Assembly: GCA_049317285.1 (NCBI GenBank)
Contig: JBMOIO010000005.1
Span: 1-55,702 of the forward strand
DNA length: 55,702 nucleotides
Direction of reading: 5' to 3'
DNA from: Minisyncoccia bacterium
GTDB lineage: Bacteria > Patescibacteriota > Minisyncoccia > Phycocordibacterales > UBA9973
In this document: in pieces, positions 1 through 55,702 of the stretch
How positions within the stretch are numbered: position 1 is the stretch's first letter
Layout: each line of letters starts with the position of its first letter
Translations under genes and position numbers: made by a program
The notes under the pieces: generated by a model
The model's database searches: none
Seen by the model: the letters and a program-made list of their open reading frames with translations, nothing else
What the model was told of the DNA's origin: nothing

Positions 1-103
1 AAATGATTAATTGTTAATTTAGAATGAGTGTCTGATGATTGGGGTACCTTGCAATTGCTGCACTAGTGACTGCTGAGTATACTCAAGAACATAGAATGGG
101 TGT

Positions 104-826
104 GTGAAGAAAGGGGTACCTTCCAATCCCGATTTTCCATTGCGTAAGTTTGTAATAAACCAAGATGGTAAAAAACTTACTGGTAGTTGGTCCAAAGGAC
201 GGCATAAAAGATATGCGTTTTATCGCTTTGGGGGTAATAATTCAAATCACAACAGAGATAAGTTTGAAGAAGCATTTATGGCTTATGTAAATAAATATGG
301 CTTTGATGATACAAAAATTAAAAGATTAAAAGAGCTCGTGCGAGAGAACCTAGTGAAAGCGACACTAGACCAACGCAAAGAGACGGACCGTTTGAAAAAA
401 TATATAAATGAGCTTACAGAAAAGCAGACAGGTATAATCAAAAAAAACTTAGATGGGATTATTCCTGATAATGTTTTGAAACAACAACTAGCAATGATAG
501 ACAAGGAATTACTTAATGCAAATGCTTCGCTTGCTGTGATGCCTAACACAGACACCAATTATGAGGAAGCTGTAGAGTTTCTTGAGGAATATCTGAAAAA
601 CCCAAGTGCTGTATGGAAAAATGCAAAGATAGGAGTGCAAGTTAAATTGCAATGGTTCCAATTTCCACTAGGTTTGACGTTTCAAAATAATTTTTTTGGA
701 ACCGCTGAAATATGTAGCTTTTTCAAAGTAAAAGACCTCGCCTTGGGGACGAAGTCTTCTAATGTGGACCCTAGGAGATTCGAACTCCTGACCTTTGCTT
801 TGCAAAAGCACTGCTCTACCAGCTGA
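104..826 (+). pseudogene. 5'-truncated large serine recombinase (C-terminal half only); the ORF ends antisense inside tRNA-Ala
   Basis: NPDFPLR...KLTGSWSKGR..YAFY followed by a long coiled coil resembles the LSR post-recombinase-domain region. In-frame stops lie upstream of 104 and there is no catalytic YxRxS domain. The tail VDPRRFELLT... is antisense tRNA. Confidence 0.65.
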
Positions 827-2062: not shown

Positions 2063-2518
2063 CTACGCAGTGAGATAGAACGCGAGTAAAAATAATCCAC
2101 CCCACCATCCACTATCAGAAACAATCAGGCTCATCATGATTTTCTTTTGCCAGTGCGCCGGCAATAATTCTGCCGAACGACCTTCTTTTTCTCGTTGAAG
2201 TAAAAACGGACTGACCCTAAAAGAAAGAAAGTATCCATTTACTATGAGCACTCCCGCGATAACAGCATGCACCAATGGAATACCAGAGAGGGGTTGTTCT
2301 CGATAAAAAATCAGTCCGCCAATAATAGCGCACGCAATTCCAATCCAAATCATTGGCTTGGTTATTTTATGCGTGCGCGTTGTTGCTTCAGTCCAATAGG
2401 AAGATTTTCGCCCGAGAAATCCATGAATATCTATCACTGTCACCGCCCCTAACCCAACAACAAAACCTGCAAAAAATAAAAAGAGTCCTATTGTGTCAGC
2501 GCTAATTGCAATTGTCAT
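2063..2518 (-). CDS. 4-TM membrane protein of unknown function
   Basis: Hydrophobic segments; start moved to MTIAIS to avoid overlap with the divergent HTH gene. Confidence 0.7.
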   Translation of the reverse strand: MTIAISADTIGLFLFFAGFVVGLGAVTVIDIHGFLGRKSSYWTEATTRTHKITKPMIWIGIACAIIGGLIFYREQPLSGIPLVHAVIAGVLIVNGYFLSFRVSPFLLQREKEGRSAELLPAHWQKKIMMSLIVSDSGWWGGLFLLAFYLTA

Positions 2519-2588
2519 ACAGTAATAGTATACAGCGTTTATTTGAAAAAATATATCTTTACAGTAAGGTGAAGAAAAAAGAAATAAT

Positions 2589-2903
2589 ATGAGCAAAAAA
2601 CGTATTGGATTACTCATTGCATTAATCCGAAAGAATAGCGGTATAAAACAGGGTGACTTCGCAAAAAGTCTTGAAATCACACAGCCGTATTTATCACAAG
2701 TTGAAAAAGGTATAAAAGAACCGAGTAATACCTTACTTCAAAAAATTTCTGAGAAACTTGAAGTTCCTGCAGCATTTATTCATCTCCTTTCAATTGAAAA
2801 AGAGGAGGTACGAGAAGATCGTAGAATGGCATGGGAAATGCTTACTCCTGTTATTAAACAATTATGTATTTCTATTTTTCCTGAAAAATTACAAAGTGCT
2901 TGA
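2589..2903 (+). CDS. XRE-family helix-turn-helix regulator
   Basis: IRKNSGIKQGDFAKSLEITQPYLSQVEKGIKEPS HTH_3 pattern. Confidence 0.9.
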   Translation: MSKKRIGLLIALIRKNSGIKQGDFAKSLEITQPYLSQVEKGIKEPSNTLLQKISEKLEVPAAFIHLLSIEKEEVREDRRMAWEMLTPVIKQLCISIFPEKLQSA

Positions 2904-2945
2904 CCTTATTCCTTCTGCCTAGTTTAGGTGGAGGGAATTTTTATT

Positions 2946-3132
2946 TACCCGACAGGGAATCTCTCCCTCGCCTCTCAATTCGCCAGTCGCTCATTTCGGG
3001 CTGGGCACCAGCTCAGTAGATTTCTCTGCTAAGAAATCATACTTCCGCTGTTCTCGTCCCTACGCAGGCAAAGCAATTTGCCTGCTGTCGGGTAGCAATG
3101 AAAAAACACCCGAAGGTGTTTTTTCATTGCTA
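2946..3132. repeat. tRNA-Gln 3'-end mirror structure (direct copy, spacer, interrupted inverted copy, hairpin)
   Basis: TACCCGACAGGGA 2946-2958 equals 8848-8860. GTTCTCGTCCCT[25-nt insert]GTCGGGTAGCAA 3050-3098 matches the tRNA T-arm/acceptor. Hairpin at 3093-3132. Confidence 0.8.
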
Positions 3133-3162
3133 GCCGTATGGGACGATGTAAGAAACCTGATA

Positions 3163-3195
3163 TTGACATATTGATAATAAAACGTATTATCAATA
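3163..3195 (+). promoter_or_regulatory. sigma70-like promoter overlapped by an 11-bp inverted repeat (operator-like)
   Basis: TTGACA 3163-3168, TATTAT 3185-3190; TATTGATAATA-aaacg-TATTATCAATA 3169-3195. Confidence 0.55.
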
Positions 3196-3207
3196 AAAAA
3201 TTAAATC

Positions 3208-3477
3208 ATGGCATTACTACGAAAAAACAGCATTCCCTATTGGGAAGAAAAGTTAAAGGCAGAAGAAATTAAATTCGGCGGAGATGAAAAAAATATAGTT
3301 GTGTATGTCGACAAAAGAGACGAGGAAGGACATCACGAGCTTAAGTTAACTATTGCCAAAATTGGGCGGAAGATCTTAATGTATCTCACAGGAATGGGAG
3401 GTATTGATACTAAAGGTAAGAGCAATGAGGAAATCTTTGGACAATTCATTTCATACAGATCAGTATTTTTCTCTTAA
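3208..3477 (+). CDS. hypothetical protein (cassette cargo)
   Basis: 89-aa ORF with its own promoter and a downstream hairpin (3495-3524). Confidence 0.65.
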   Translation: MALLRKNSIPYWEEKLKAEEIKFGGDEKNIVVYVDKRDEEGHHELKLTIAKIGRKILMYLTGMGGIDTKGKSNEEIFGQFISYRSVFFS

Positions 3478-3560
3478 CAACATTTTATTTTTTTGACCTC
3501 TGAGCTAATTACTTAGAGGTTTTTCTATTGCTAGCAGTGTGGGACGATATTAGAACTGTA

Positions 3561-4493
3561 TTACTGACTAAATAATCCTAAAAACCGCTTCTTAACAAGC
3601 TTTGAAATTGGGAACTTTTCGGATTTAAAAACCTTTATCTTTTCTTCTTGATTTTGATAATCCTCTATAAATCTATCAAAATCTAATGCTCCGCCATATA
3701 AACCAACTGTTTTATGTTTACTATCAATTGGCAATTTCCCAACCAGTTTAAACCTATCAACGAAATGAAGCAGGTCAACGTGGTCAACACCTAAAACACT
3801 CAGAGTAATGTCCAACTGCTTTGCATGTGAAGTAACCCATTTGTCGTACGCTTCAATTCCTTGTTCTTGCATTACTTTCATTGACTCATCAAAATTATAA
3901 CTTCCAGATGAAGGAACTTTTTTTCCTATTATTTCACACTTCTTTAAGTCTGAAATAGCAGGCTTTTTCAAGCTCTTATATGTTGTAGGTGTAAGATAAT
4001 AAGTACAACGCCCTTTATGTTGAATAATGTTTATTAAAATACATGCATAATAAAAATCATTATCACCCTTAAATGTTAAAGCATCGTCTATTTGAAAGAT
4101 AAAGTTTTTTACGGTTGTATATTTTTTTCTTTTTCGTATTTGTGATTTAGGGGTAGATATTTTAGTTAATAACTTTTCTAAATTTCTTTTTCGTGTATGA
4201 GCCTCTTTTTCTCCGGCTTCTTCATTCCACATTTTAACTCCAGCACCCTTTTGAATAATGTCTCTTACTTCAGATAAAATAGACTCTGTAAGAAAGCCTG
4301 TTTCCCAGAGTGCTAAAGCATAGGTGGTAATAAAAATTTCAATTTCTTCGTCACCAATCGCCTCATTGCGTGATTGCTCAATTTTTTCTTTTATAGTTTC
4401 TATAGGAGTTCCTGTATCATAAAGCTCCATGAATTCATTATAAATGTCATGGGCAAAATCACTGTCTATAATTTTTGTACCATCAATTGCCAT
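3561..4493 (-). CDS. hypothetical protein (element cargo)
   Basis: 310-aa AT-rich ORF, apparently co-transcribed with 4503-5105. Confidence 0.8.
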   Translation of the reverse strand: MAIDGTKIIDSDFAHDIYNEFMELYDTGTPIETIKEKIEQSRNEAIGDEEIEIFITTYALALWETGFLTESILSEVRDIIQKGAGVKMWNEEAGEKEAHTRKRNLEKLLTKISTPKSQIRKRKKYTTVKNFIFQIDDALTFKGDNDFYYACILINIIQHKGRCTYYLTPTTYKSLKKPAISDLKKCEIIGKKVPSSGSYNFDESMKVMQEQGIEAYDKWVTSHAKQLDITLSVLGVDHVDLLHFVDRFKLVGKLPIDSKHKTVGLYGGALDFDRFIEDYQNQEEKIKVFKSEKFPISKLVKKRFLGLFSQ

Positions 4494-4502
4494 ATACTGA
4501 TT

Positions 4503-5105
4503 TTATTCTCTGATACCTTCCGACCCTTTTAAGTCTATTTGCGAAGATAGTGATTTTAATATTGATGATCGGTATTCTACATCCTTTTCTGAAAGTTCAA
4601 CTTTATTATTAAGGATATCGATTATTAGGAATATTTCAAAATACTCATTTTCATAAAAATATTCTGTCTCAGAAGAATCTTGATCTAAAAATTGTCTATC
4701 ATTAAATAATTTAAATCTAATAGGCTCGCTATCTAGATTTGAACAATCTCCCTCCATCGCAACAGAGGTCATAGACAATTCATTCGCCATCACCATATCC
4801 GCTTGTTCATATCCGTATTCTTTAGAAAGAAATACGAGAAAATCATTACTTCTCTTTCCTTGTGATTTAAAGATTACTCCGTTCGGTGTGGCTACCACTG
4901 TTGGTTTACCATTCTCATCAAATGTTACTTTTGAAGTTTTATCTTGAACAATGATGCGGAATCCTATATCCCGTTCCGAAAGAATTACATCTAATATAGT
5001 CTTACCATTTTCAAATGAAACATTTTTTATAGAAAGACTAATGTCTGCAAATTCAACTTCAGAAGCTGATTTAGATTTTTTATTGGATTTAAAAAAGTTA
5101 AACAT
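4503..5105 (-). CDS. hypothetical protein (element cargo)
   Basis: 200-aa acidic ORF starting MFNFFK. Confidence 0.8.
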   Translation of the reverse strand: MFNFFKSNKKSKSASEVEFADISLSIKNVSFENGKTILDVILSERDIGFRIIVQDKTSKVTFDENGKPTVVATPNGVIFKSQGKRSNDFLVFLSKEYGYEQADMVMANELSMTSVAMEGDCSNLDSEPIRFKLFNDRQFLDQDSSETEYFYENEYFEIFLIIDILNNKVELSEKDVEYRSSILKSLSSQIDLKGSEGIRE

Positions 5106-5179
5106 ATTGCAATATTAGCATTTTAGAATTTCAGTTCCTAACTTGACCACAATAGAACATTAGCCACCCATGGAAATAA

Positions 5180-5260
5180 CCAGTCCGTCCGACGCTCCTC
5201 CGCAATACGGGGTCCCCATACAGTCTCGAAGAGCTGTATGGGGTTGCGGGGACGGGCTGG
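5180..5260. other. GC-rich nested stem-loop, candidate single-strand origin or structured RNA
   Basis: CCAGTCCGTCC/GGACGGGCTGG, CCGCAA/TTGCGG, CCCCATACAG/CTGTATGGGG, CTC-GAA-GAG tip. Confidence 0.5.
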
Positions 5261-5298
5261 GTATTTGACATATCTTTGAATAATGATTAAATGCGTAA

Positions 5299-6159
5299 AT
5301 GACCCCAAAAGATCAGTCCATGCTTAATACTCTTAATCTCCTCGTGATGCTCTCACGATCTACAAAACAGTTAGCTTTTGGTATTCCGGAAGAAGATAAA
5401 TACATACTCACAGTAACAAAGCAAAATCTCATCGATTCTGATCTTACGCTCCCTGAATTTACCAATACTTTGAACACTCTCGCTAAGAAAGGTTACGTCT
5501 GGCACATGGTATTTCATGATGAGAATCTACGCTCTCAGATAAACAATTTAAAAAATAGTGGACAACATGATCAAATTAAAACTGCACTTGAAAAATTAGA
5601 GGAAAAAGGTTTTTCAGATAAGCTTAACGAAGCATCTATTAAGCATTTCGGCGAACTAATTCCAAAAAATATTGATTTTGACTACAGTGATATTAATGAC
5701 GATAATCAAACCGCTACAGAAGCATTCAACGGTGGCTTAGAGATATATAGTAAAATGAAACCAGACGATATTGGCTTAGTTCTGTTACTGCCTTTTAGAG
5801 ACATAGAAATTCTTTTCAATAAGATTAATGACGGTAAAAAATTTGAAGAAATTCAGGATGATGGTTATTGGTATGACCCAATTAAATATGAATTTCACAT
5901 TGATGGGAAAACTATAAAGACAAGCAATCGTGGTTTCCCTAATCTTGTTCATTTCGTACTCTCAGCTATTTTTAATAATCCTAATGCTACAAAAATTGAT
6001 TATGAAGAAATAGCAGGTTTTGATTCCACTAAAGGTAATAAACCATATCGGGACGCAATGATAAAATTTATTAATAAACATCCAAAGCTTAAACAAATGT
6101 TTTCTGTTCATCTATATCATATTGAGTTTAACTCCGAAAAATACAACGACACGCAATAA
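5299..6159 (+). CDS. hypothetical protein, first gene of the Rep-recombinase run
   Basis: 286-aa ORF with TTGACA at 5265; no capsid-like basic N-terminus. Confidence 0.8.
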   Translation: MTPKDQSMLNTLNLLVMLSRSTKQLAFGIPEEDKYILTVTKQNLIDSDLTLPEFTNTLNTLAKKGYVWHMVFHDENLRSQINNLKNSGQHDQIKTALEKLEEKGFSDKLNEASIKHFGELIPKNIDFDYSDINDDNQTATEAFNGGLEIYSKMKPDDIGLVLLLPFRDIEILFNKINDGKKFEEIQDDGYWYDPIKYEFHIDGKTIKTSNRGFPNLVHFVLSAIFNNPNATKIDYEEIAGFDSTKGNKPYRDAMIKFINKHPKLKQMFSVHLYHIEFNSEKYNDTQ

Positions 6160-6201
6160 GTTGGTCAACTATGCGCAACTCTGATTTTCTATGATCTAGA
6201 G

Positions 6202-6417
6202 GTGAGCATATTTAGTAACAATTTAATACAAGAATACCAAGCAGAAATGCAGATTTCTTATGGTGTTACTATTGCCGACACTGAAGCTCAAATTCAGCTA
6301 TTAGCTTTAACTAGCAGTATGTTTCCAATAACTACTAAGGGTTCAAAGGTTGGACCGAGGGTCGGGGCTAGTATTACCCCGACTTCGGGACAACTTAACT
6401 CTTTTAACTATCAATAA
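6202..6417 (+). CDS. small hypothetical protein upstream of Rep (possible regulator or directionality factor)
   Basis: 71 aa; stop lies 2 nt before the Rep ATG; its 3' part overlaps the ori hairpin. Confidence 0.55.
   Translation: MSIFSNNLIQEYQAEMQISYGVTIADTEAQIQLLALTSSMFPITTKGSKVGPRVGASITPTSGQLNSFNYQ
6355..6388 (+). other. rolling-circle origin stem-loop with nonanucleotide TAGTATTAC
   Basis: GTCGGGG(6361-67)-CTAGTATTA-CCCCGAC(6377-83), extended by CCGA/TCGG; TAGTATTAC at 6369-6377. Confidence 0.9.
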
Positions 6418-6419
6418 CT

Positions 6420-7358
6420 ATGAGCGATACACCTAATAAAAGTCATAGATATTGTTTTACAATTCACAACTATACAAAGGTTGAATTGAAAAATTTTCAT
6501 AAACTCGCAGAAGCCTTAGAAAAGCATCGCTATATTTCTTATGGTTTGGAAATTGCCCCTGAAAACAAAACTCCTCATATACAAGGATACGTGGAATTAA
6601 AAACAGCACAGCGCTATAGTTTTCTTCACAACTATTTTAATTTCAAAAGAAAAAAAGAAGTTCTGAAATTTCATGTTGAAATTGCTAATGGTACAGCAGA
6701 AGATAATAAGAAATACAATTCTAAAGATGGAGAGTTCTTTGAATTTGGCGAATCTACTACACAAGGAACACGCACTGATTTAAAAGTAATAAAGGAAGCT
6801 GTTAAAGCAAATCCTAAAAATCTAAAAGGTACGATTGATGAACACGGAAACAACTATCAACAAATAAAATTTGCTGAATCTCTAACAAAATATTATTTAG
6901 AAAACAGAGACCCTTCAGCACCTCCTATTGTTTATTGGATATACGGATCACCTGGTATAGGAAAAACCAGAATGATCTATAGAAATTTTAAAGATGTATG
7001 TCCCGTGTCTTCTTATAATTGGTTAGGTACAGATTACGCTCAAAATGAATGTTTTCTCTTAGACGATTTTAGAAGAGATGATCTTCCATTTAATACGGTA
7101 TTAAAAATTACTGATCGTTATCCTTTTACCTTGGAATTTAAGGGTAGTCAGATACCATTGAACTCACCGTATATTATTTTCACTTCTCCTAAATCAATAG
7201 AAGAAACTTACCATTTCTCTGGTGAGGATATTAAACAGTTACACCGTAGAATCATACAAATACACATTACAGATGAAAGTGAGGCAGAAAATATTGACCT
7301 AAAGAATTTAGATCCGAAATATATTCACAAAGCCGTCAATGATTACAACCAAGAGTAG
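6420..7358 (+). CDS. rep: CRESS/circovirus-like replication initiator (HUH endonuclease + SF3 helicase)
   Basis: Motif I CFTIHN, II PHIQG, III YNSK, QGTRTDL linker, Walker A GSPGIGKT, Walker B LLDDF, motif C IFTS, Arg finger LHRRI. Confidence 0.93.
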   Translation: MSDTPNKSHRYCFTIHNYTKVELKNFHKLAEALEKHRYISYGLEIAPENKTPHIQGYVELKTAQRYSFLHNYFNFKRKKEVLKFHVEIANGTAEDNKKYNSKDGEFFEFGESTTQGTRTDLKVIKEAVKANPKNLKGTIDEHGNNYQQIKFAESLTKYYLENRDPSAPPIVYWIYGSPGIGKTRMIYRNFKDVCPVSSYNWLGTDYAQNECFLLDDFRRDDLPFNTVLKITDRYPFTLEFKGSQIPLNSPYIIFTSPKSIEETYHFSGEDIKQLHRRIIQIHITDESEAENIDLKNLDPKYIHKAVNDYNQE

Positions 7359-7361
7359 TTT

Positions 7362-8906
7362 ATGCATAATACGAAAGCAATGACTAAATACGTCCTATAC
7401 GCCCGAAAATCTTCCGAGAGTGAAGATAGACAGGTTAAATCACTAGACGACCAAGAAACTGAAATGCTCACTATAGCCAAGCGTGAGGGCTTAGAGATAG
7501 TGCAAATAATCAGAGAATCCCACTCAGCGAAAACAACCAAAGAAAGACCAGAATTCAACAACATGATAAAAGGGATTCAGTCTGGAAAATTCACAGCGAT
7601 ACTTACATGGGCACCTGATCGTATTTCTCGAAATGCGGGAGATTTAGGTATCGTGATTGATTTGATGGACGCTGGAAAACTAGAGTGTATTAAAACCTTT
7701 TCTCAAACGTTCCATAATGACCCCTATAGTAAGTTTATGTTCCTAATGTTAGGTTCTCAAGCCAAACTAGAAAATGATCAGAAGAGTTTAAACGTGAAGC
7801 GTGGAAATAGAGAAAAACTAAAACGTGGCGAATGGGTTAACGGTGCTCCTTTTGGATACCTTAACGACAAGGTTAACAAAACAATAATTAAAGATCCGAA
7901 ACAGGCTCCGTATGTTTATAAGATGTTTGAAATGTATTCAACTGGGCTATTCAGCTTTAAACAAATATCCGAAAAATTATATGAGCAAGGTTTACGGACT
8001 AACTCAAATAAAAAGATATATAAAGGATCAATTCACAGAATAATTAATCGAACCTTCTATTATGGCTTGATGGTTTCAGACGGAAAATATTATCAAGGCA
8101 ATCACGAACAAATTGTTTCTCAACAACTGTTTGAAAAATGCCAAGAATTATCTGGAAACAAAACTCGTCCTCGAGCTAAGACGAAAGGCTTTACGCTTTC
8201 AGGATTTATGAATTGTGATAAATGTGGGTGTGCTATCACCGCTGAAATTAAGAAAGGTAAATATATCTACTATCACTGTACTTCAGGCAAAGGGACTTGT
8301 GATCAAAAATCTTTAAACACAAGAGAAGAAGATATACACGACTATATCGCTAAAGATATGGAGAAGTTATATATCAATCAAAAGATTGTAGATATTGTAT
8401 ATAAAGCGAAACTTGAAGAATTACAGCAAAACGGAGAGTTCCATAATCACAGCCTAGACACTACTCGTGAAGCTCTAAAATCGCTCGTACTGCGTAAATC
8501 TCGGTTAGTAGACACATTTACTAATGGCGACATAGAAGAAGCCTTATACAAAGAGAAATTACTATCTTTAGAGAATGAAAAAGTTAGCCTTACCAAACAA
8601 GTAGCCGATATTGAACAAAATAATCCTGACCCGTATGCAACTATCGAACTCATCTATAATGAATTTAAGCAAGGAAATACAATGGCGAAACGCTATAGAG
8701 ATGCTTCACCAGACGAAAAGAGAATAATACTCTCAAATTCACTATCGAACTTTACCCTCAAGGATAGAAATAACTTTAAGTTACAATACAAAACTCCTTA
8801 TAGTGTGTTCGCAAATACACCCGTAAATGTATCTTTTTCAGACTTGCTACCCGACAGGGACTCGAACCCCAATTATCTGGACCAAAACCAGGTGTCCTAC
8901 CATTAG
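7362..8906 (+). CDS. large serine recombinase (resolvase, recombinase, Zn-ribbon and coiled-coil domains)
   Basis: YARKSSESEDRQ, RPEF, DRISRN, APFGY, CDKCG..YYHC..C; the last 18 aa are antisense tRNA-Gln. Confidence 0.95.
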   Translation: MHNTKAMTKYVLYARKSSESEDRQVKSLDDQETEMLTIAKREGLEIVQIIRESHSAKTTKERPEFNNMIKGIQSGKFTAILTWAPDRISRNAGDLGIVIDLMDAGKLECIKTFSQTFHNDPYSKFMFLMLGSQAKLENDQKSLNVKRGNREKLKRGEWVNGAPFGYLNDKVNKTIIKDPKQAPYVYKMFEMYSTGLFSFKQISEKLYEQGLRTNSNKKIYKGSIHRIINRTFYYGLMVSDGKYYQGNHEQIVSQQLFEKCQELSGNKTRPRAKTKGFTLSGFMNCDKCGCAITAEIKKGKYIYYHCTSGKGTCDQKSLNTREEDIHDYIAKDMEKLYINQKIVDIVYKAKLEELQQNGEFHNHSLDTTREALKSLVLRKSRLVDTFTNGDIEEALYKEKLLSLENEKVSLTKQVADIEQNNPDPYATIELIYNEFKQGNTMAKRYRDASPDEKRIILSNSLSNFTLKDRNNFKLQYKTPYSVFANTPVNVSFSDLLPDRDSNPNYLDQNQVSYH

Positions 8907-8917
8907 ACGATCGGGTA
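8847..8917 (-). tRNA. tRNA-Gln(TTG)
   Basis: TACCCGATCGTCTAATGGTAGGACACCTGGTTTTGGTCCAGATAATTGGGGTTCGAGTCCCTGTCGGGTAG. Confidence 0.95.
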
Positions 8918-8947
8918 CTATATTTGGTGCTTGTTTTATACCACTTT

Positions 8948-9997
8948 TTAGGGAGTTTTGGAAGCTTCCAGTCCGAGCATGTCGATGAAGGCGAGCTCAA
9001 GCGGAAGTGTCGGCACTGAGGCATACGCCAACCGCTCGATTGCCGTGATCATCGAAACAATACCGCGGGAAGAGATAGTGTCAGTCCCCTCCACTGCCCC
9101 GCGCTTGATCACCTCTACATACTGCTCGGAATAATCCGCTTCAATACTCTCCCGCTGTGTGGGCGCATAGCGGTACATGAGTGATAATCGCATGGTTGAA
9201 AGAAAAAGCTCGGCCAAGAGCATCATATCGGTGTGCACTTCAGAAGCATTCCCGAGTATTGCATAGCACGCATCGATGTCGCGATTGATAAGCGCGGTGT
9301 ACAGGTTATGAATGACGCGAAGGCTTGGCGCACCAGTCACGCGCTCGGTAAGCTCGCGGTCTATCACGCGCCCTTTAGCAGCCGAAAATACTTTCTGCAG
9401 AATACTTAATGTATCGCGGAATGACCCAGCCCCTAAAAATGCAATCAAGCTCGCGCTATCCGCATCGATTTCAATACGCTCATTTTTTGCAATCGCTTCG
9501 ATACGCGCGATAAGCATTTTTTCACTCGGCTTTCGAAAAGCAAATACCTGACAGCGGGAAAAGATTGTTTCCGGCACTTTATCAAGCTCGGTTGTTGCGA
9601 GAATAAATAGCACATGCGCCGGCGGTTCTTCAAGTGTCTTCAACAGTGCGTTGAACGCTTCTTTCGTGAGCATGTGCACTTCGTCGATAATATAGACCTT
9701 AAATGCAGATGAGAAAGGAAGGACTCGTACTGCTTCGCGAAGCGCCCGAATGTCGTCGATACCACGGTTGCTTGCCGCATCAATTTCCATGATATCTTCA
9801 GGATTAGTACCGAGCGCTCGCGCAAAGATGCGGGCGACAGAAGTCTTCCCTGTTCCGCGGGAGCCAGTGAAAAGGTATGCGTGTGAGAAGTTGTGGTCTT
9901 CAATGGACTGCGAAAGGACAGAGACGATATGGTCCTGCCCTTCTACTTCCCCCCACTCGTTTGGTCGATATTTTCTGTATAAGACTTGGTCGTGCAT
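8948..9997 (-). CDS. dnaX: DNA polymerase III subunit gamma/tau
   Basis: [42 protein letters not shown]. Confidence 0.96.
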
Positions 9998-54208: not shown

Positions 54209-54685
54209 ATGACCCGTCAAAAGAAATGGGGTGATGAAAATCTTATTGCTGCGGTAAAAGATTCGTTAAGTGTTCGTCAAGTTATCAAGAAATTGGGACT
54301 AATTGAAGCAGGCGGTAATTATGTACAAATACAACAACGAATCAAAGCTTTAAATATTGATATTTCTCATTTCACCGGGAAGGGTTGGAATAAGGGCGGG
54401 GTATTTAGACCTATTCCTCTTCAAGAACTATCTTCCCTCTTAATAAATGGATCATTAGTTCAAAGTCATAAACTAAAAAAGAGGTTATTTAGAGAGGGTT
54501 TGAAAAAACCTCAATGTGAACTATGTAATTGGTCAAAAGAGTCATTAGACGGTAGAATTCCTGTTGAACTGGATCATATCAATGGAAACAGGTTTGATAA
54601 CAGAATAGAAAACTTGCGAATCCTTTGTCCTAACTGCCACAGCTTACAGCCAACGCATCGCGGAAAGAATAAGAAAAAAGTTTAA
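54209..54685 (+). CDS. HNH endonuclease (free-standing, between two tRNAs)
   Basis: CELC...LDHINGNRFDNRIENLRILCPNCH. Confidence 0.92.
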   Translation: MTRQKKWGDENLIAAVKDSLSVRQVIKKLGLIEAGGNYVQIQQRIKALNIDISHFTGKGWNKGGVFRPIPLQELSSLLINGSLVQSHKLKKRLFREGLKKPQCELCNWSKESLDGRIPVELDHINGNRFDNRIENLRILCPNCHSLQPTHRGKNKKKV

Positions 54686-55702
54686 ACACATTGCCTGAGT
54701 GGTGGAATGGTAGACACGCGACACTTAAAATGTTGTCCGCGAAATCGGGTGTGGGTTCGAGTCCCACCTCAGGCACCATTAGGGAACTCATCGGTTTTTT
54801 GGAAGCCAAAATGCGGGACGCGCGAAGCGCGTCCCAAGGATTCCCGCCGAATTCCCCAAACGAATTCAGAATTTTTGGCGCGCTGGCGCGCACTAATTTT
54901 TCGCCAAGGAGCAGGTTCGAGCCAAAGATTTCTTTGGCTTTGACCTTTTTCGCAAAAAGGTCATCATCAGAAGCAATTTTGTCCAATGATTGTGCGTCTT
55001 TTATCCATTCTTTCATCGGTTCGAGCCAATCATTCTGCTTGTGTGAAAGATTAGTGATTTCTTCTTCGAGCGACTTCTTTTCTGATAATAACTTTGCTTT
55101 CCGATTTCGATAATCTTGTTCGTCAATTACTTGGTCTAAATATCCTGTAAGAAGTCGCTCTAACTTTTGCGAAATGACCGATAGTTTTGTTTCGTTCTCT
55201 TTCACACAAGCAATCAAAGACGGGGCGGAATTGTTAAAATCTTTTTCTGCCATTTTTAACAATTCTTCCGCCCAGTCTTTGGGCAAAGAAACTTTTTGTA
55301 TTAGAGATGATAACTGGCGATCCAATTCTTCCTGTCTGATACAAGGTTCGGGACATTTCATATCTTTACGCTTTTTGGTGCAGTGATAATAAGTATAGTT
55401 ATGCACATTTCCGTTTTTCTGTTTCTTAACCTTGTGTTCGCCAGTTATCATCATCTTGCATGAAGCACAGGAAATGAGACCACAGAAAGGTTGAGGTTCA
55501 TTTTTCAATTTACGCTCGGGTTGTCCACGTTTCCGTAACATTTCCTGTGCTTCATCAAAAAGTTTCTTTGAAATGATTGGCTCGTGTTTACCTTCGTGGA
55601 TTTCACCACCGTATTTGAATAGTCCGATGTAGAATGGATTTGAAAGAATAAAAGACGCTTTGGTTTTGGAGATTCTCTTTCCGGTTCTAGTAGTAACGCC
55701 GG
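54630..55702 (-). CDS. large serine recombinase, 5' part outside the window; the ORF reads antisense through tRNA-Leu
   Basis: Frame open to the window edge: ILSNPFYIG..GKHEPIIS..F, CASC..YYHC..C, coiled coil; the tail VPEVGLEPT is antisense tRNA. Confidence 0.9.
   Translation of the reverse strand, partial: GVTTRTGKRISKTKASFILSNPFYIGLFKYGGEIHEGKHEPIISKKLFDEAQEMLRKRGQPERKLKNEPQPFCGLISCASCKMMITGEHKVKKQKNGNVHNYTYYHCTKKRKDMKCPEPCIRQEELDRQLSSLIQKVSLPKDWAEELLKMAEKDFNNSAPSLIACVKENETKLSVISQKLERLLTGYLDQVIDEQDYRNRKAKLLSEKKSLEEEITNLSHKQNDWLEPMKEWIKDAQSLDKIASDDDLFAKKVKAKEIFGSNLLLGEKLVRASAPKILNSFGEFGGNPWDALRASRILASKKPMSSLMVPEVGLEPTPDFADNILSVACLPFHHSGNVFKLFSYSFRDALAVSCGS
54693..54778 (+). tRNA. tRNA-Leu(TAA)
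   Basis: GCCTGAGTGGTGGAATGGTAGACACG CGACA-CTTAAAA-TGTTG ...GGTTCGAGTCCCACCTCAGGCACCA. Confidence 0.95.

Follow-up and report, generated by a model that had tools for sequence, protein, structure and literature searches.

A large serine recombinase gene of Patescibacteria that probably carries attP in its 3′ end and would change its C-terminus upon integration at a tRNA gene

The integrases of SSV1-type archaeal fuselloviruses are tyrosine recombinases with the attachment site of the element (attP) in the open reading frame (ORF) of the integrase gene (int); the target is a tRNA gene, and integration splits int in two. The mycobacteriophages BPs, Brujita, and Charlie carry attP in the repressor gene and use a tyrosine integrase; integration changes the C-terminus and sets the stability of the protein, and a degradation tag has been shown. 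Serine integrases recombine attP with the attachment site of the host (attB) without host factors—excision requires a directionality factor—and are the main tools for large-DNA insertion. As a rule, the gene does not contain their att sites; in A118-type elements, attP is found outside the int ORF and attB in a protein gene, comK. To our knowledge, serine integrases are not known for targeting tRNA genes. In the myxophage Mx8, attP lies within the integrase's coding region, and integration yields a recombinant gene with a new 3′ end (intP to intX) and an altered C-terminus (PMC6070905). The system described here is a large serine recombinase (LSR) gene and the element around it in a window of 55,702 nucleotides, the whole stretch of DNA analyzed, which is contig C5 (JBMOIO010000005.1) of a Patescibacteria genome of 652 kb in 10 contigs (G000). 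Its attP is probably embedded in the 3′ end of the LSR gene, so that integration would swap the last 13 residues of the protein for 18 tRNA-derived ones as a by-product of a compact replicon.

Judged by its sequence, the element would be an analogue of the attP-in-int systems of the Mx8 and SSV1 type and not a member, with the predicted crossover inside the int ORF. It resembles Mx8 in that attP lies within the integrase gene and the C-terminus changes on integration; Mx8, in contrast, uses a tyrosine recombinase and its altered behavior was shown by experiment, whereas the enzyme here is an LSR, the exchange is read from sequence, and the tail appears DNA-constrained. With SSV1 it has the attP in the int ORF and the tRNA target in common, but in the present case the exchange is confined to the last 13 codons and leaves the catalytic body whole. 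BPs, Brujita, and Charlie likewise have attP in a coding sequence and a changed C-terminus; the gene here, however, is an LSR gene, and no degradation tag was seen. A118 differs in that attP of the present element lies inside the ORF and the B′ arm of attB is the T-arm plus acceptor end of a tRNA. The domain set of resolvase, recombinase, and zinc ribbon with coiled coil is that of Listeria A118 and LI, as is the register logic of the att sites (Rutherford et al. 2013, PMC3783163). In the literature outside most subscription journals and supplements, neither a serine integrase with attP inside its own gene nor a tRNA-targeting LSR family in Patescibacteria was found.

The LSR in its integrated form is encoded by the ORF 7362..8906 (+) and comprises 514 residues, ending in ...SFSDLLPDRDSNPNYLDQNQVSYH. 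It features the order typical of large serine recombinases: an N-terminal catalytic resolvase domain with the conserved Arg and Ser (Resolvase, PF00239, 9.3e-22, residues 11–158), followed by a Recombinase domain (PF07508, 2e-17, residues 179–263) and a zinc ribbon (Zn_ribbon_recom, PF13408, 6e-9, residues 279–333). The residues R15, S17, and Q24 are at least 90% conserved among 55 homologues; the Pfam domains are exclusively those of serine recombinases, and no tyrosine recombinase fold was found. The named homologues come from Candidatus Paceibacterota and other Patescibacteria. An intact tRNA-Gln(UUG) gene at 8846..8917 (−; ARAGORN, anticodon ttg; Rfam RF00005, 52.2 bits) forms the B′ side of attB, and its antisense strand makes up the final 61 nt of the LSR ORF. 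After ...SFSD-LL (TTG CTA, 8844–8849), the frame continues with 18 antisense-tRNA codons, PDRDSNPNYLDQNQVSYH; residues 1–496, up to the second Leu, are element-derived. With a native tail of 13 residues, the free protein would count 509 residues instead of 514. The earlier note on this DNA, made from sequence alone, had placed the attP core inside the recombinase ORF and proposed the exchange of the C-terminus on integration. Its ORF coordinates, its translations, and the read-through into the antisense tRNA all proved correct on recheck, as did the arithmetic of 509 versus 514 residues (496 + 13), and the proposal itself is backed by this anatomy together with the empty sites and the family-wide pattern described below.

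Two places upstream of the gene carry the core together with a tail. TTGCTA recurs at 3528–3533, followed in frame by AVWDDIRTVLLTK with a stop at 3573–3575, and at 3127–3132, followed in frame by AVWDDVRNLILTY with a stop at 3172–3174. Both tails begin AVWDD[IV]R; the two sites are identical at 23 of 30 positions, and both fit the motif of 33 sites from other loci. The hexamer is not significant alone, with three copies in the 7361 nt upstream of the LSR, one of which (6682) lacks the tail motif. The inner site, attL1, consists of a P′ arm at 3529..3562 (+; core copy 3528–3533) with GAAC at 3553–3556 (positions 25–28) and fits the P′ consensus fully. Its detached tail codons and stop, 3534..3575 (+), would form the C-terminus of the LSR if 8849 were joined to 3534, and this type of tail is contiguous with the LSR in the homologues P0054, P0040, and P0039. 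The outer site, attL2, lies at 3128..3174 (+; core 3127–3132), ends with its own tail and stop, and has a degenerate outer motif (GAAAC). With the strict motif W[DE][DENS].[RGA][TNA] in six frames of the whole genome, the two window sites were the only LSR-linked places found.

Alignment of the closest relative, G016, with the window begins precisely at 8844 and reaches 13961, with 81% identity over 5.1 kb and 85% over tRNA-Gln and the adjoining gene. Its empty site reads terminator-TTTTTTCTTTGCTACCCGAC and lacks the LSR; to the left of its tRNA-Gln lie a terminator hairpin, TTTTTTCT, and then TTGCTACCCGAC, and no recombinase is present. The LSR at tRNA-Gln is absent in all six relatives with enough flank; seven loci were fetched, and the seventh (G003) was not judged, as it has only 51 nt of flank. 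The start of homology at 8844 and the empty attB in these relatives, along with the homologue tails, the distal sites, and the crossover window given below, mark the proposed att layout as real and not a product of chance. On the other side, the host sequence common to G000 and G016 is a structured stretch that starts with a copy of the tRNA 3′ end and is followed by a terminator, and it extends to the core at 3127. Since the G016-shared host sequence runs to this core, 3127 is the junction with host DNA, and the insertion spans approximately 3133–8849; the earlier note had listed 3127 as a second, spare site, and that assignment is to be replaced. By this comparison, the DNA from about 3134 to 8849 was inserted into a Patescibacteria (Paceibacterota-like) genome next to tRNA-Gln(UUG), at its 3′ end. 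The G+C fraction is 0.30–0.38 between approximately 3250 and 8750 and 0.47–0.54 to the right of the tRNA. The B arm at 3101..3126 is a two-way terminator hairpin of the host, with its T-run abutting the core, as derived from sequence and computed fold; the empty sites of the six relatives carry a T-rich tract at its place, which in several of them is a hairpin plus T-run.

The structured host stretch, 2946–3098 (+), is closed by a 10-bp stem, TACCCGACAG / CTGTCGGGTA, the two strands of which reproduce the tRNA-Gln 3′ end, one in antisense and the other in sense orientation, and a strong terminator stands behind it. The fold z-score is −8.4 with this terminator included in the folded piece, and an Rfam search of 2946–3098 gave no match. 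The stretch is partly conserved beside the empty attB of G016, and GC-rich stretches starting with a B′-like copy of a tRNA end adjoin attB in L061 and perhaps L155.

The same architecture recurs across the family. A homologue search found 6136 proteins, and the tails were classed in the best 120. Antisense-tRNA tails (...DSNP/Q/L...) occur in 72 of these; contiguous free-type tails (WDDVRT-type, for example ..SELLAVWDDVRTLFNSSR, ..SQLRAVWDDVRTCLKN, and ..DLLRLWDDVRTSTSNNQFLKKV) occur in 10, plus P0112. The remaining 38 are of another kind, and approximately 24 of them stop 2–3 residues past the core, which matches the 13-nt tRNA overlap of loci such as L141 and L146. The presumed free form of the LSR is derived from the contiguous homologues. 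Approximately 35 of the 80 metagenome loci belong to the subfamily of ~500-aa LSRs, and 25 of these ~35 run into an antisense tRNA (Gln, Ser, Lys, Val, Tyr); among GTDB genomes, the frame runs into an antisense tRNA in 38 of 58 subfamily loci and abuts a tRNA in two more. Distal sites were sought on the LSR strand upstream of tRNA-overlapping LSRs; a site had to match the core region at 7 of 9 positions and carry GAAC behind it, and the search covered loci with at least 1 kb of upstream sequence and with GAAC for register. This search yielded 15 matches in 10 of 21 metagenome loci (reverse strand, 3 in 2 loci; shuffles, 3.1) and 17 matches in 12 of 27 GTDB loci (reverse strand, 6 in 5 loci; shuffles, 3.4), so that the reverse-strand and shuffled controls gave 3–5 times fewer matches than the forward strand. 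Most forward sites read [WL][DEFY][DE][VAIL][RG]T in the LSR frame, with tails such as VLAVWVDVRTFLTN (stop), LLGVWDDVGTFF.., LRAAWDDVRTVLHSSS (stop), and SALWDDVGTFVLHGSLI (stop) at 4.4–8.3 kb from the tRNA. On this pattern of sites, independent islands regularly have the split tail at their distal end. Both the split WDDxR-type tails at distal island ends and a conserved tail in homologues, which had been suggested beforehand as checks, were thereby found, the latter as the contiguous WDDxRT-type tails counted above.

A second, shorter LSR subfamily (~420 aa, C-terminus ...KEGS..EKRELL..LRSR..YKDK...) accounts for approximately 45 of the 80 metagenome loci; its members (L063, L068–L116, and most of 21 viral loci) do not run into tRNA genes. 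The viral loci stem from IMG/VR, where a query with the single protein returned one distant locus and an alignment query returned 21; among the latter, only L117, L133, and L134 match most of the LSR length.

The position of the strand exchange can be narrowed down by comparing both ends of the islands. Among 24 attL/attR pairs, 13–18 disagree at the positions up to 0, 6 at position 1, and 10 at position 6; positions 2–5 mismatch in one pair each, in every case L134, where the register is off by one. Read from these alignments, the exchange must lie within GCTA (8846..8849), inside the shared core TTGCTA 8844–8849. These four bases are the last two acceptor-stem bases of the tRNA, the discriminator, and the next base; since the crossover falls at the extreme 3′ end of the tRNA, the latter is left unaltered. 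The left half of attR is the P arm, which is placed at 8820..8845 (+), a predicted extent, and which codes for ...TPVNVSFSDL of the LSR; the consensus of 55 attR sites before the tRNA end is CC.AAAAAtggcGATTTTtca..AaT. The B′ arm at 8850..8872 (+) is the antisense of the acceptor 3′ strand and the T-arm, with GAAC at 8864–8867 (positions 20–23). The consensus of 33 P′ arms reads TGC..G..GT.TGGGACGA.GTT.GAAC..T..T, and that of 55 B′ arms reads TGC........GGGATTCGAAC. GGGA occupies one register in both kinds of arm, whereas T.GAAC lies at 22–28 in P′ versus 17–23 in B′ (GAAC at 25–28 versus 20–23). The best offset between the position weight matrices of P′ and B′ is +5 (0.486; next 0.372), and MAFFT independently placed a 5-nt gap between the two. 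The short central identity—a 4-bp block—and the outer motif 5 bp further out in attP thus appear in the arrangement that characterizes serine-integrase sites. In the corresponding model, the inner half-site motifs are in register and the outer motif, bound by the zinc ribbon, is 5 bp closer to the center in attB (PMC3783163).

The residues W-D-D-x-R-T of the tail are TGG GAC GAx xTx xGA ACx, that is, the P′ half-site itself. The information content by codon position over P′ 12–29 is 0.95 bits for first, 1.45 bits for second, and 1.07 bits for third positions. The R/G codon has A at its wobble base (position 26) in 97% of the sites, whereas its first base (position 24) varies (G in 52%); the Asp codon has C at its wobble base (position 17) in 88% of P′ sites. 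Nothing is conserved downstream of 'RT', where the tails end after a total of 12 to ~40 residues. The earlier note had regarded the tails as conserved in the manner of coding sequence: the conservation itself stands, but third positions are not below first ones, and the P′ half-site explains the pattern at least as well. From the base statistics, the tail appears to be conserved mainly as P′ half-site.

In the proposed explanation, the recombinase gene would have attP straddling its 3′ end. The P arm would encode the last conserved residues (...TPVNxSFSxL), the crossover falls in GCTA, and the P′ arm would encode the 9–11 residues that come next (AVWDDxRT...), before the frame passes through a few arbitrary codons to a stop. 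Upon integration, the P arm would be joined to the tRNA—the frame then continuing through the 18 antisense-tRNA codons—and the P′ arm, together with the 13 tail codons, would stay behind at the distal end of the insertion. The P′ arm mimics the T-arm of the tRNA, with GGGA in register and T.GAAC shifted 5 bp outward, and this 5-bp shift of GAAC would be the difference between attP and attB by which serine integrases tell the sites apart. Excision would regenerate a circle, either form of the protein would be active, and the exchange would have no regulatory role. The swap most likely results from packing attP into the gene of a 5-kb replicon rather than from a dedicated switch.

Several points weigh against this explanation. 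The distal site was not found in 11 of the 21 metagenome and 15 of the 27 GTDB loci searched; the rows are not all independent, as L056 and L179 are the same contig, several loci have two sites, and some loci are related; and the crossover map is biased to some extent, as the search demanded that position 2 match and that 7 of 9 positions agree in total, with positions 3–5 free. Second codon positions are the most conserved, more than a pure DNA motif needs, and T31 and T34, past GAAC, are second positions of hydrophobic codons, so that weak peptide-level selection may act on the tail, to judge from these positions. A role of the tail is possible, since the ORF always runs through P′. In Logan contigs from three public runs of one study, searched as contigs only, no joints were found over 2500–9500; one contig spans this region and may be the source assembly, and a loose end at 8856 is the tRNA of another organism. 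In further searches for the circular form, a terminal-overlap test of 11 whole-contig loci revealed no circular one, and L117, a viral contig of 5355 nt whose end cuts the LSR, had neither overlapping termini nor a continuation of the gene at its start. A DNA pattern spanning attP had two matches in viral contigs, both rejected as chance since they lie in GC-rich genes without an LSR.

The points on the tail bear on the idea of a built-in switch, which goes back to the earlier note; on this idea, the free tail (AVWDDxRT...) would be a functional peptide for integration, partner binding, or stability, and its exchange would alter the directionality or lifetime of the enzyme. An ORF that spans the att site in every member examined would suit such a switch, as would the conserved second codon positions and the two hydrophobic positions after GAAC, and there is a precedent in the tyrosine integrase of Mx8, where a new int 3′ end changes the specificity of the enzyme (PMC6070905). 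Yet the conservation of the tail ends where the half-site ends, with the length past 'RT' free; positions 17 and 26, both third positions, are fixed, whereas one first position varies and gives either R or G; and integrated tails range from 2–3 residues (..LLPD, ..MLGD) to ~40, set only by the tRNA. A free-type tail is moreover kept beside an antisense tRNA at 140 nt (L155) or 1.5 kb (L061) and within a 1.5-Mb contig (L181), so the state of the tail is not tied to the state of integration, and a dedicated switch is regarded as unlikely. A free-type contiguous tail also stands behind another element (L184), and the four cases together imply that a contiguous tail is no proof of a free circle. 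The lack of joints in the public contigs over 2500–9500 would also fit a dead remnant, that is, a recombinase truncated by insertion beside the tRNA and now immobile, with the tail sites as fossils. The degenerate outer motif of attL2 and the broken LSR of a close relative, L092, point the same way; however, an intact LSR ORF encodes all three Pfam domains, attL1 matches the P′ consensus fully, the absence of the island from all six informative relatives points to a recent gain, and the genome holds eight LSR–tRNA pairs with open frames, which together make a remnant improbable. The far end of the island has also been sought at 2946–2961 (TACCCGACAGGGAATC), a direct repeat of the tRNA 3′ end matching 8848–8863 at 15 of 16 positions, far beyond the length expected by chance in 6 kb and in keeping with the classical layout of tRNA islands; the TTGCTA sites would then be unrelated regulatory motifs behind terminators. 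This candidate was rejected and is scarcely credible: the repeat and the structured stretch also lie beside tRNA-Gln in G016, where the site is empty and no island is present, and hence predate the insertion, TTGCTA plus tail recurs distally in unrelated islands, and the tail is contiguous with the LSR in homologues.

The embedded attP, with the tail swap as a by-product, remains the preferred explanation. The insertion can be divided into two parts: a 0.4-kb unit comprising a P′ tail, a promoter-like site, an 89-aa ORF, and a terminator, and a main element of 5.3 kb that starts from the second P′ site (3528), spans 3534–8849, and encodes a Rep protein and its own LSR. The small unit between the two P′ sites, 3175..3527 (+), features a promoter-like TTGACA...TATTAT, the 89-aa ORF at 3208–3477, for which a Pfam scan gave no match, and a terminator hairpin at 3496–3520. 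The promoter-like layout belongs to a 40-nt direct repeat of 80% identity, 998–1037 / 3163–3202, of which one copy lies upstream of the ORF 1042–1428 and the other upstream of the 89-aa ORF just past attL2; the TTGACA of the latter falls within the tail codons of attL2. The cargo ORFs of the main element occupy 3561..6417 and comprise ORF310 (3561–4493, −), ORF200 (4503–5105, −), ORF286 (5299–6159, +), and ORF71 (6202–6417, +); none of the four had a match in the Pfam scan. The ORF 6420..7358 (+) would encode a Rep protein of the CRESS-virus or plasmid type, as its domains—an HUH Rep domain (Viral_Rep, PF02407, 2.6e-8) and a superfamily-3 helicase (RNA_helicase, PF00910, 1.2e-6)—suggest. Rep homologues of 61–65% identity lie just upstream of the LSR in L037 and L092. 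The metagenome locus L037 keeps the order ORF286-ORF71-Rep-LSR, with an LSR of 69% identity, and L092 has ORF71, Rep, and the broken LSR. No directionality factor was recognized by Pfam among the ORFs of the island.

The arrangement at tRNA-Gln is one of several in this genome. Across the whole genome (contigs C3, C5, C6, C7, C8, C9, and C10), the frame closes within the 3′ end of a tRNA gene, in antisense, for eight of nine LSR genes confirmed by Pfam; the overlapped genes—Gln-ttg, Gln-ctg, Arg-gcg, Ser-gct, Glu-ctc, Glu-ttc, Leu-taa, and Val-tac—are 8 of the 34 tRNA genes. The exception, C9:80-1438, belongs to the shorter subfamily (here ~420–450 aa) and overlaps no tRNA. Three LSR genes or fragments lie at contig ends, namely at the start and the end of C5 and at C9:80. 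The one at the start of the window, ORF 95–826 (+), runs 63 nt into antisense tRNA-Ala(tgc) (764–837, −); it has no Pfam match, resembles an LSR homologue only weakly (E 6e-4), in the coiled-coil part, and is probably, on this similarity, the tail end of another diverged or decayed recombinase arranged likewise. A 29-nt partial copy (79%) of the 5′ half of this tRNA-Ala (815–843) is found 69 nt further on, at 884–912. At the other end, 54630–55700 (−) encodes an LSR cut by the contig end, with Recombinase and zinc-ribbon domains, that reads through the whole antisense tRNA-Leu(taa) (54693–54778, +). Among the distal sites of the other LSRs of the genome, only that of the tRNA-Val LSR (C8:13080) is convincing; the rest were not found or lie on contigs that are too short. 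For this tRNA-Val(tac) LSR (C8:13080, C8:19217), the distal P′-like site reads GTGCGCCCT and then GGAC N5 GAGAAC; the integrated (..FGAP, stop) and the predicted free frame (..FCAP, stop) both end inside the shared region, which leaves almost no tail to exchange. The 34 tRNA genes were counted by ARAGORN, which found no transfer-messenger RNA gene in this genome, rated 99.6% complete.

Tandem P′ sites are common and occur in the window, L047, L056, L149, L150, and L184. On contig C66 of genome G023 (L031), two orphan P′ tail sites (LLAVWDDVGTLIY, stop, and LLAVWDDVGTLTRL, stop) lie within 1100–2260, each after a terminator; behind the first come a promoter-like site, one ORF, and a terminator, and behind the second an ORF on the opposite strand. 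This contig carries no recombinase and has an empty attB beside tRNA-Gln, which is inverted relative to the neighboring gene—a homologue of window 8948–9997—in comparison with G000 and G016. Tentatively, and with considerable doubt, LSRs may recognize their target mainly via the B′ arm and the core, so that each insertion leaves a usable target beside the tRNA, whatever the left arm (host terminator, small-unit terminator, or the 3′ end of a resident LSR), and elements as well as recombinase-less single-gene units starting with P′ would pile up as integron-like arrays. If this were true, a resident recombinase would regain its native tail once the next unit lands behind it, and the tail swap would mark the LSR copy at the active, tRNA-proximal end of the array.

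The LSR family described here is widespread in Patescibacteria. Its attP would be built into the 3′ end of the enzyme's own gene, its attB is the universal T-arm plus acceptor end of tRNAs, and its P′ arm is a copy of the tRNA arm shifted by 5 bp. The exchange of the C-terminus raises the question whether it influences regulation in a serine integrase in the way known for Mx8 with its tyrosine integrase. The family offers a readable natural example of the discrimination between attP and attB and a rule for the prediction of att sites from sequence alone, and its members are candidate integration tools for bacteria that are so far without genetics.

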